Source: Escherichia coli (lineage in GTDB: Bacteria > Pseudomonadota > Gammaproteobacteria > Enterobacterales > Enterobacteriaceae). Taken from it: a DNA stretch of 64,000 nt. A program made the translations under genes and the position numbers. Shown here piece by piece: positions 36,753 to 37,671 of the stretch. The notes under the pieces were generated by a model. That model did not search any database. It worked only from the letters and a program-made list of their open reading frames with translations, and was not told the origin of the DNA. The DNA lies in assembly GCF_003334305.1 (NCBI RefSeq), contig NZ_QOWS01000001.1. One strand, given 5' to 3'. Positions within the stretch are counted from its first letter, which is position 1; every line of letters begins with the position of its first letter.

Positions 36753-37671
36753 GAATCTTGACCTTTTTTGCTGTTATCGCCACTCCCTGCCGTGGAAGTC
36801 AGCTTAGAACAATGTACTCCCCCAGGACGGTGTTTTGAAGGTCTGCAGAATAAGATTTTGCCAGAGGGGAAGGCTCGATTGTGCTGTTAATAACTTAATA
36901 ATGACAAAATAATGAGGTGTATATGCTTTACATGCAATGTTATATAGTGAATTGTTCTGATTCTTAATTGTAAGTCTGGTTTTTTTATCTGTAAGATAAT
37001 TGTGTGAAAATGCCTCATTTAAGAATTCACTAATGAAACGCGATGATGATATTTCCGCATTACGGAGAGTTTAACAGCGTGATGATTTCCGAGGTGTCGT
37101 AATGGGGGCAAGGTGTGAAACTATTGTTAAGCGGAATTAATGAATGAGGATGATGCTAATTAATTATTATTTAATATTCAAAAAGGTTTTGATGTGCTTA
37201 TTAATAATAGAAGATTACTTTGCCTAACATAACATAACTTTGCATCAGATAATTCGCAATGACCCTTATAAATAAAAGGTTTTTGGGGTAAAATGCTCGC
37301 ATAAATGACGGATCCCTGCTCTTGATGCCGCCTCACCATTGCTGTTTGTACGTGTTCGCGTATGACCAGCGATGCTGCACGAGAGTGGAACAAGGACTCA
37401 CATTTACATTTATACAAACACGCGCATGTCATAAATAGAAAAGAGTGAGTAACTTAATAGATATGCGATCCCTGAAGATATATTCTGTGATCTACTTCAG
37501 GCATTATAACGGAACAATGTGAGTCGCTTTTTTAGTGCAACTCATATGCATTTTTACTTTCGTCCGGGTTCCGGATGAAACTGCCAGGGAGGCACATTAC
37601 AAATGGAATTGCTTGTTTGTGTGTGCACAGCATTAACCAGCTCAGTATGAGCCGCCAGTAAGTGATAATAT

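Follow-up and report, generated by a model that had tools for sequence, protein, structure and literature searches.

The 919-bp intergenic region between alaA and lrhA of Escherichia coli was analyzed within a 64,000-nucleotide stretch of genomic DNA (contig NZ_QOWS01000001.1 of assembly GCF_003334305.1), hereafter the window, in which it occupies positions 36753 to 37671. The flanking genes diverge from it, with alaA on the minus strand (ATG at 36752) and lrhA on the plus strand (ATG at 37672). Their names were taken from the RefSeq annotations of strain J-8, whose gap is identical to that of the window, and of K-12; neither annotation has any feature inside the 919 bp. The K-12 MG1655 sequence differs from the window at five of the 919 positions (37057, 37076, 37100, 37300 and 37347), three of which fall within 36858–37112. 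A megablast search found the gap sequence once per genome in every complete E. coli genome searched (5426 of 5426; 95–100% identity), and in 42 of these genomes no individual match spans 80% or more of the gap. The evidence presented below leaves little doubt that the gap is a shared control region of alaA and lrhA, composed of two promoters, a long lrhA leader and an AT-rich spacer. This regulatory region is already known and published, and the analysis adds description and no new biology.

For lrhA and yfbQ/alaA, a single transcription start site (TSS) each is given in the supplementary data of Kim et al. 2012 (PMC3415461). The lrhA TSS, represented by 11 reads and preceded by AATTCGCAATGACCCTTATAAATAAAAGGTTTTTGGGGTAAAATGCTCGGA, ending in ...GGGGTAAAATGCTCGGA, defines a 5' untranslated region (UTR) of 371 nt and maps to A37301 on the plus strand. 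The alaA TSS (231 reads) defines a 52-nt UTR and maps to A36804 on the minus strand; the sequence listed upstream of it, CTTATTCTGCAGACCTTCAAAACACCGTCCTGGGGGAGTACATTGTTCTAA, ending in ...GGGGGAGTACATTGTTCTAA, matches the window. Melamed et al. 2023 (PMC10578931) likewise describe a 371-nt lrhA 5' UTR that they call "unusually long", and the primer SM079 of their PBAD fusion opens the lrhA insert at ATAAATGACGG, which corresponds to window position 37301. The two starts are 497 bp apart and 496 bp lie between them.

A scan of one genome per species of the Enterobacteriaceae yielded 80 loci, whose LrhA orthologues are 74–95% identical. A divergent alaA lies upstream in 77 of the 80, across a gap of 764–1140 bp (mostly 905–1013 bp) with 35–44% GC. 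In an alignment of 78 sequences, on which the conservation and spacing values of the gap are based, the segment 36753–36857, comprising the alaA leader and core promoter, is highly conserved, with a peak of 0.96. The next 255 bp (36858–37112) form a variable AT-rich spacer, whose identity to the window is 0.18–0.53 and whose length is kept. Further conserved stretches are found at 37113–37142, 37158–37172 and 37248–37292, the last being the lrhA core promoter, while the lrhA leader is poorly conserved over 37301–37590 and conserved over 37593–37671. Base composition varies along the gap, from 50% GC in the leader of alaA and 43% in its core promoter to 35.7% in 36858–37112, 28.7% in 37113–37300 (the most AT-rich part) and 42.6% in the lrhA leader.

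Spacing was measured with the aligned promoters as anchors, and an independent motif-based estimate agrees. The -10 elements of the two genes are separated by a median of 477 bp, with an interquartile range (IQR) of 471–481 bp and a 5–95% range of 449–484 bp. A conserved GTGAA block lies at a median of 303 bp from the alaA -10 (IQR 299–307 bp) and of 174 bp from the lrhA -10, the latter with a standard deviation of 2.8 bp. The unconserved part of the lrhA leader has a median length of 334 bp (IQR 324–368 bp), and the DNA between the promoters holds its length better than this transcribed part. On comparative grounds, such length conservation would fit upstream sites held in a fixed helical phase, or else a nucleoprotein structure of larger size.

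The alaA core promoter (36805–36839, minus strand) has the -10 hexamer TACATT at 36816–36811, a 17-bp spacer and the -35 hexamer TTCAAA at 36839–36834. Both hexamers are invariant across genera, the sequence of their spacer varies, and the position fits the mapped TSS; this is a conserved sigma-70 promoter. The lrhA core promoter (37248–37300, plus strand) has the -35 hexamer TTATAA at 37266–37271, a 17-bp spacer and the -10 hexamer TAAAAT at 37289–37294. Its CTTATAA and TAAGAT/TAAAAT elements are kept in nearly all genera, and the conserved -10 stands at the right distance from the start in 73 of the 78 sequences. The -35 matches the consensus at only three of six positions, and this weakness suggests that the promoter is activator-dependent. 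With regard to a LysR-type T-N11-A dyad, expected near -65 to -35 of a regulated promoter, most genera have, just upstream of the lrhA -35, a conserved GATTATTCGCAATAA...CTTATAA containing a TTAT-N5-ATAA dyad, of which the E. coli version is degenerate (GATAATTCGCAATGA). A consensus promoter scan of the gap returned three hits against 3.3 expected from shuffles, and neither real promoter was among them. The region does not have the classical layout of LysR-type divergent promoters, with close TSSs (typically less than about 150 bp apart) and a shared operator, because its TSSs lie 497 bp apart and this spacing is conserved.

The 371-nt lrhA 5' UTR (37301–37671, plus strand) is a target hub of Hfq-dependent small RNAs (sRNAs). 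Bilusic et al. 2014 (PMC4152368) coimmunoprecipitated lrhA leader RNA with Hfq as fragments of about 150 and 350 nt, detected a transcript of about 1.5 kb with a leader probe solely in an hfq mutant, and concluded that lrhA is repressed by Hfq. Lalaouna et al. 2018 (PMC5861431) found lrhA enriched with MS2-RprA (ratio 744) by MS2-affinity purification followed by sequencing of the RNA (MAPS), and reported that RprA induces decay of the lrhA mRNA. Chimeras of UhpU, ArcZ, RprA and McaS in the leader were recovered in RNA interaction by ligation and sequencing (RIL-seq) experiments by Melamed et al. 2023 (PMC10578931), in which an lrhA-lacZ fusion was repressed by UhpU, ArcZ and RprA and not by McaS, and UhpU–lrhA pairing was proved with a compensatory mutation pair. 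Repression by UhpU was confirmed in a 2025 PNAS paper (PMC12704781), where the lrhA site was identical to that of K-12 in all 816 of the E. albertii genomes examined. A preliminary description of this DNA, made from the sequence alone, had thought a long, complex regulated lrhA leader plausible; this was right and already in the literature, with the qualification that the leader covers 371 of the 919 bp. The same description had named a single promoter immediately upstream of lrhA, with nothing else in the region, as the finding that would speak against it, and the gap holds more than this.

Pairing sites were placed with the K-12 sRNA sequences by comparing 16-nt sRNA windows with 20-nt leader windows. 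Duplexes computed with RNAduplex between full-length sRNAs and the leader were meaningless whole-molecule hybrids and were replaced by these local windows. The best local duplex of ArcZ (nt 64–79; -17.7 kcal/mol) is predicted with CUGCCAGGGAGGC at 37578–37594, i.e., -94 to -78 from the AUG. RprA and McaS share a predicted site at 37620–37633, with the core CACAGCA at 37626–37632 (-46 to -40): McaS nt 44–57 would pair with 37620–37633 (-15.5) and RprA nt 61–70 with 37624–37633 (-13.0). CACAGCA is nearly invariant across genera and matches the seed that RprA and McaS share. The UhpU site, at 37644–37660 (-28 to -12), is predicted to form a duplex with UhpU ACUGGUGACUUUUGCC (-15.5); it overlaps the 3' arm of the hairpin GCUCA/UGAGC (37640–37652) and abuts the Shine-Dalgarno-like UAAGUGAU (37659–37666). 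In the lrhA-M1 gBlock, GCCGCCAGT is changed to GCCGCGAGT (context ...GAGCCGCGAGT versus wild-type GAGCCGCCAGT), which corresponds to C37656G at the center of this duplex; the change restores repression by UhpU-M1 (PMC10578931). Outside Escherichia, the ArcZ and UhpU sites are kept just partially, and solely in close relatives (Citrobacter and Salmonella, for example). The whole leader has a minimum free energy (MFE) of -112.4 kcal/mol (z = -2.76), the predicted sRNA sites are partly paired in the folding ensemble, and RNAalifold returned no consensus structure for the last 95 nt of 72 leaders.

Four elements of the conserved leader segment are near-invariant across genera: the 14-mer AAAUGGAAUUGCUU, CACAGCA, a small hairpin and GUGAA. 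The 14-mer (37601–37614, plus strand; -71 to -58) is nearly invariant among 72 aligned leaders from more than 20 genera, and its conservation exceeds that of the experimentally known ArcZ and UhpU sites. A predicted E. coli hairpin has it at the top; it matches no predicted site of ArcZ, RprA, McaS or UhpU, and shows no covariation supporting a structure in the 72 leaders. Because of the latter two results, it looks like a putative binding site of some partner molecule. A GGAUG motif is found about 20 nt upstream of the 14-mer in many genera and would suggest CsrA as a candidate; a literature search linking lrhA, CsrA and crosslinking-immunoprecipitation sequencing (CLIP-seq) returned nothing.

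A second conserved element lies in the 52-nt alaA 5' UTR (36753–36804, minus strand; TSS at 36804), whose identity across the 78 sequences is 0.69–0.96. The leader contains the hairpin ACUUCC-ACGGCA-GGGAGU (36782–36799, minus strand; mRNA +6 to +23), with an invariant loop and inner stem, and CCACGGCAGG is invariant or nearly so among 66 distinct sequences, which represent more than 20 genera. Covariation is seen at the closing pair (AU 43, GC 12, GU 8, unpaired 2), and a second pair alternates between U.G and U-A. The covariation score, though carried by few variable pairs, is higher than in any of 500 shuffles or any slid control. MFE folding of the single sequence contains the hairpin, and the stability of the complete alaA leader does not exceed that of shuffles (z = 0.08). 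The hairpin matches no Rfam family, and we know of no described function for it. It may be a factor site, an sRNA site or a 5' stabilizing hairpin; its 3' arm is Shine-Dalgarno-like, but stands about 30 nt from the AUG. The alaA gene does not appear in the RIL-seq supplements of Melamed et al. 2023 (PMC10578931).

Upstream of the lrhA core promoter, the conserved blocks at 37113–37177 have conservation values of 0.67–0.74. The first contains the direct repeat GTGAA-N6-GTTAA (37115–37130) within GTGTGAAAnnAtTGTTAAG...ATTAATG, and the second is AATTAATTATTATTTAATATT (37157–37177); both are candidate transcription-factor sites. Enrichment of OmpR at the lrhA promoter region has been reported from chromatin immunoprecipitation. 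Binding of LrhA to this region is also reported, and reviews state that CpxR binds the lrhA promoter directly and that Lrp binds it. Control of alaA by Lrp was reportedly described by Kim et al. in 2010. The CpxR consensus GTAAA-N5/6-GTAAA has no N5 hit in the gap, its N6 hits are at background, and the likeness of the GTGAA-N6-GTTAA repeat to this consensus is at chance level. In systematic evolution of ligands by exponential enrichment (SELEX), peaks of RpoD holoenzyme were found in the "920 bp-long lrhA-alaA" spacer, and the lrhA-alaA row of the RpoD/H-NS SELEX table carries no H-NS mark, whereas neighboring rows do (Shimada 2014).

The composition of the gap is in keeping with its length. 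When the J-8 gene table is overlaid on the window, the gap is the longest of 51 annotated gaps, followed by the 630-bp nuoA-lrhA gap (the median is 82 bp). The preliminary description had recognized it as the longest non-coding stretch and is confirmed to the exact coordinates. It had also called the stretch strongly AT-rich, unlike the compact intergenic regions elsewhere in the window. The gap has 38.3% GC against 52.2% for the whole window, but the other large gaps are equally AT-rich (35–39% GC) and the composition is therefore normal for long E. coli intergenic DNA. Nor do the many A/T tracts and short palindromes that it pointed to set the gap apart from 500 dinucleotide-preserving shuffles: six homopolymer A/T runs of at least 5 nt were counted against 4.1 ± 1.8 expected, 17 palindromes of 6 nt against 17.4 ± 4.1, and four of 8 nt against 4.5. 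W-runs show no excess over the shuffles, and the direct and inverted repeats are short matches only, typical of AT-rich DNA.

Natural insertions in the gap were surveyed in genomes in which it is otherwise identical to the window. An IS1 element (768 bp plus a 9-bp duplication) at 37130–37138 is carried by five listed strains, including enterotoxigenic E. coli (ETEC) B7A, and the site was checked in two of them. Further IS1 elements occur at 37132–37140, 37211–37219, 37441–37449 and 37466–37474, and both orientations are found (loci L088 and L090–L094). The insertions, at five or more sites, are independent events, and they suggest that adaptive rewiring of motility has repeatedly targeted the region. 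PigU levels in Serratia rise when transposons insert in the gap between alaA and the lrhA orthologue pigU, one such insertion lying 825 bp upstream of pigU. The authors of that work noted that nothing is annotated in this gap and considered that there might be regulatory elements, "such as sRNAs"; they also cite the same insertion effect in E. coli and the need for about 921 bp in complementation in Pantoea.

Some isolates show additional features. The IS1-carrying isolates come from humans, lettuce, a frog and a pig, and one strain also has a frameshifted lrhA. In the complete genome of SCPM-O-B-12142 (locus L089), an IS1 at 36914 is joined to elaD remnants, and the accompanying deletion has taken out lrhA together with all of the nuo operon and the genes as far as elaD. 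A human isolate (locus L095) has a 109-bp miniature element at 37071–37074, in the variable spacer, with 17-bp terminal inverted repeats (GGAAGGTGCGAATAAGT...) and flanked by TTAA.

Taken together, alaA mRNA starts at 36804 on the minus strand, with a 52-nt leader, and lrhA mRNA at 37301 on the plus strand, with a 371-nt leader in which, we propose, LrhA synthesis is set post-transcriptionally. Hfq binds this leader, and UhpU, RprA and ArcZ lower LrhA synthesis, by pairing that is placed within its last 95 nt or so, with McaS making contact as well. UhpU probably blocks translation initiation, given that its pairing adjoins the presumed ribosome-binding site, and RprA has been shown to act at least partly through mRNA decay. 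A direct block of the 30S subunit by ArcZ is unlikely because its predicted pairing, 78–94 nt upstream of the AUG, is too far; ArcZ may instead act through cleavage or decay, leader refolding or competition for a protein site. Because LrhA represses flhDC, rprA and rpoS translation, the leader would connect signals of motility and of stress in a network with feedback. The DNA between the TSSs (496 bp) would then represent the upstream regulatory DNA of the lrhA promoter, with the conserved blocks at -188 to -124 and the reported binding of CpxR, Lrp, OmpR and LrhA, together with the AT-rich spacer.

Several observations weigh against this reading of the gap as a shared control region with a single lrhA leader. 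The 255-bp variable spacer is left without an explained role, the lrhA TSS is backed by just 11 reads (Kim et al. 2012, PMC3415461), and the reported transcription-factor sites could not be located from the sequence. The sRNA duplex energies are no better than those in 80 shuffled leaders, and the placements of the ArcZ, RprA and McaS sites rest, for this reason, on known seeds, published assays and conservation. In addition, the lrhA leader of Salmonella Typhimurium is 712 nt long by differential RNA sequencing, among the longest of that organism, so that a second, distal promoter may exist.

A possible extension, which we put forward tentatively and consider somewhat unlikely, is that the approximately 496 bp between the TSSs are a length-constrained architectural element, either a promoter-coupling complex, formed for instance by Lrp, or a conditional distal leader, with the ACGGCA loop and the 14-mer as further regulator sites. 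Such an element would explain why the spacing stays within an IQR of 471–481 bp across more than 20 genera despite sequence drift. It would equally explain the effects of insertions on LrhA and PigU levels in E. coli and Serratia, and the need for the whole spacer in Pantoea complementation.

E. coli might also have a distal lrhA promoter near 36940–36970 with a leader of about 700 nt, in which case transcription would cover the greater part of the gap and the spacer would belong to the leader RNA, not to the upstream DNA. The equivalent of the Salmonella distal TSS (-712) is at about 36968 in the window, inside the variable spacer. At the equivalent position, S. arizonae has the extended -10-like TGGTATTTT and E. 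coli TGtTATATA (36938–36946), but the latter lacks the conserved final T. A positional sigma-70 scan of the lrhA strand in the 78 sequences revealed no clustered or conserved distal promoter, and the promoter-like hits in the gap, as described above, are at the shuffle expectation. Several RpoD SELEX peaks lie in the spacer (Shimada 2014), but the E. coli TSS table holds a single lrhA TSS at -371 (PMC3415461), the same that was used by Melamed et al. 2023 (PMC10578931). The band of about 1.5 kb seen with the leader probe (Bilusic et al. 2014, PMC4152368) is in line with a longer transcript, yet 939 and 371 nt plus a 3' UTR already amount to about 1.4 kb. The rise in pigU caused by Serratia insertions 825 bp upstream and the roughly 921 bp needed for full Pantoea complementation also favor a distal promoter. 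On this evidence, we regard its existence in E. coli as rather improbable.

Another explanation, which we find doubtful, holds that the AT-rich DNA separating the TSSs chiefly serves for the assembly of nucleoid-associated or wrapping proteins (H-NS, Fis, IHF or an Lrp oligomer common to both promoters), and is constrained in length rather than in sequence. Its low GC content (28.7–35.7%) and the preservation of length without sequence (-10 to -10 IQR 471–481 bp; block at 174 ± 2.8 bp) agree with such a role, as do the review-reported binding of Lrp to the lrhA promoter and the altered lrhA or pigU expression in transposon or IS insertions. By contrast, lrhA-alaA has no H-NS mark in the SELEX table, A/T tracts are not above what composition predicts, and several spaced, degenerate factor sites could equally keep the length.

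The idea that the gap hides an independent small-RNA or small-protein gene is very improbable. Unannotated sRNAs were among the possibilities raised in the preliminary description, and Hfq coimmunoprecipitation did recover "ig-lrhA-alaA" RNAs with lengths of about 150 and 350 nt, but they were interpreted as fragments of the lrhA leader (PMC4152368). The Serratia authors speculated on sRNAs in the distal part of the gap. No non-coding RNA is annotated in the gap in K-12 RefSeq, though recent sRNAs such as uhpU are listed there. A terminator scan revealed no terminator-like site in the gap, and an Rfam scan of 36000–38500 at E ≤ 1 gave no match in it. Together with the lack of a consensus structure and of conservation in 36858–37112, these results led us to reject a separate sRNA gene. 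The same Rfam scan gave a mir-136 hit at 37898–37973 (plus strand), inside the lrhA coding sequence, which was dismissed as a chance match to a local hairpin (score of 21.9 bits, with the gathering score at 64; E = 0.44). Open reading frames (ORFs) of 13 to 84 codons are present, among them the two that had been described earlier, an 84-aa ORF at 37178–37432 (minus strand) and a 13-codon ORF starting at 37033 (plus strand). Both exist as described, and neither is conserved. The 84-aa frame is broken by stop codons in its nearest relatives (E. albertii, a divergent E. coli and Citrobacter) and was rejected as a gene; what similarity it retains comes from conserved DNA of the lrhA promoter, translated on the opposite strand. 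Conservation is lowest where the 13-codon ORF is located, upstream of the lrhA TSS, and the other ORFs lie in unconserved sequence. The gap does not fit horizontally acquired DNA silenced by H-NS, since it and its flanks show synteny in 77 species belonging to more than 20 genera and are therefore ancestral, and the SELEX table has no H-NS mark for the spacer.

Three further observations concern the surrounding DNA and the data sets. The second-longest gap of the window, lrhA-nuoA (38611–39240; 630 bp, 38.7% GC), contains the nuoA TSS 128 nt upstream of the nuoA ATG, according to a published TSS table, and about 500 bp remain, to be shared by the 3' end of lrhA and the control DNA upstream of the nuo promoter. 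Base-for-base overlay of J-8 gave 3172 mismatches that begin at position 1 (window 1 to about 4000), and the remainder of the window agrees; a small indel that separates the two strains early in the window is the suggested cause. Finally, contig CACSKA010000019.1 (locus L063), which bears the title "Chryseobacterium sp. 18061", contains an alaA-lrhA locus of enterobacterial type, whose products are 94% (AlaA) and 78% (LrhA) identical to those of E. coli. It is likely a contamination or a mislabelled assembly.

LrhA stands near the top of the enterobacterial hierarchy that governs motility, fimbriae, RpoS and virulence, and its orthologues control antibiotic production and CRISPR-Cas immunity. 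The amount of LrhA in the cell is decided largely in these 919 bp, as already published. The points that remain, a spacer of conserved length and two invariant leader elements, are minor.

Among the known systems that come close is the rpoS leader of E. coli, which is acted on by DsrA, RprA, ArcZ and OxyS via Hfq. Like that of lrhA, it is a leader of several hundred nucleotides that belongs to a global regulator, binds Hfq and is targeted by multiple sRNAs, of which ArcZ and RprA are common to both. The two genes belong to one network, as LrhA represses rprA and rpoS translation (PMC10578931). In rpoS, however, the sRNAs open an inhibitory hairpin and activate translation, whereas all the tested sRNAs that act on lrhA repress it, and no long-range helix with covariation that would occlude the ribosome-binding site was found in the lrhA leaders. 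The 197-nt flhDC leader is part of the same motility circuit: ArcZ and McaS act on it, and LrhA is a direct repressor of flhDC. It differs in its gene and its sites, and the lrhA leader is nearly twice as long and mostly (37301–37590) unconserved.

With respect to the divergent arrangement, the 755-bp csgD-csgB spacer was grouped with lrhA-alaA as a many-factor spacer of stress genes (Shimada 2014). There, both operons serve one pathway, whereas alaA, which functions in alanine synthesis, and lrhA have no obvious link and a distance of 497 bp separates their TSSs. RprA and McaS also target the csgD leader, through the same UGCUGUGUG seed. The lrhA orthologues pigU (Serratia), hexA (Pectobacterium and Photorhabdus), pecT (Dickeya), rovM (Yersinia) and lrhA of Pantoea share the divergent alaA and a spacer of about 0.9–1 kb, and insertions in the upstream regions of these orthologues raise expression of the regulator; the comparison made here covers sequences of the Enterobacteriaceae. 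ArcZ–hexA pairing is also reported for Photorhabdus and Xenorhabdus.

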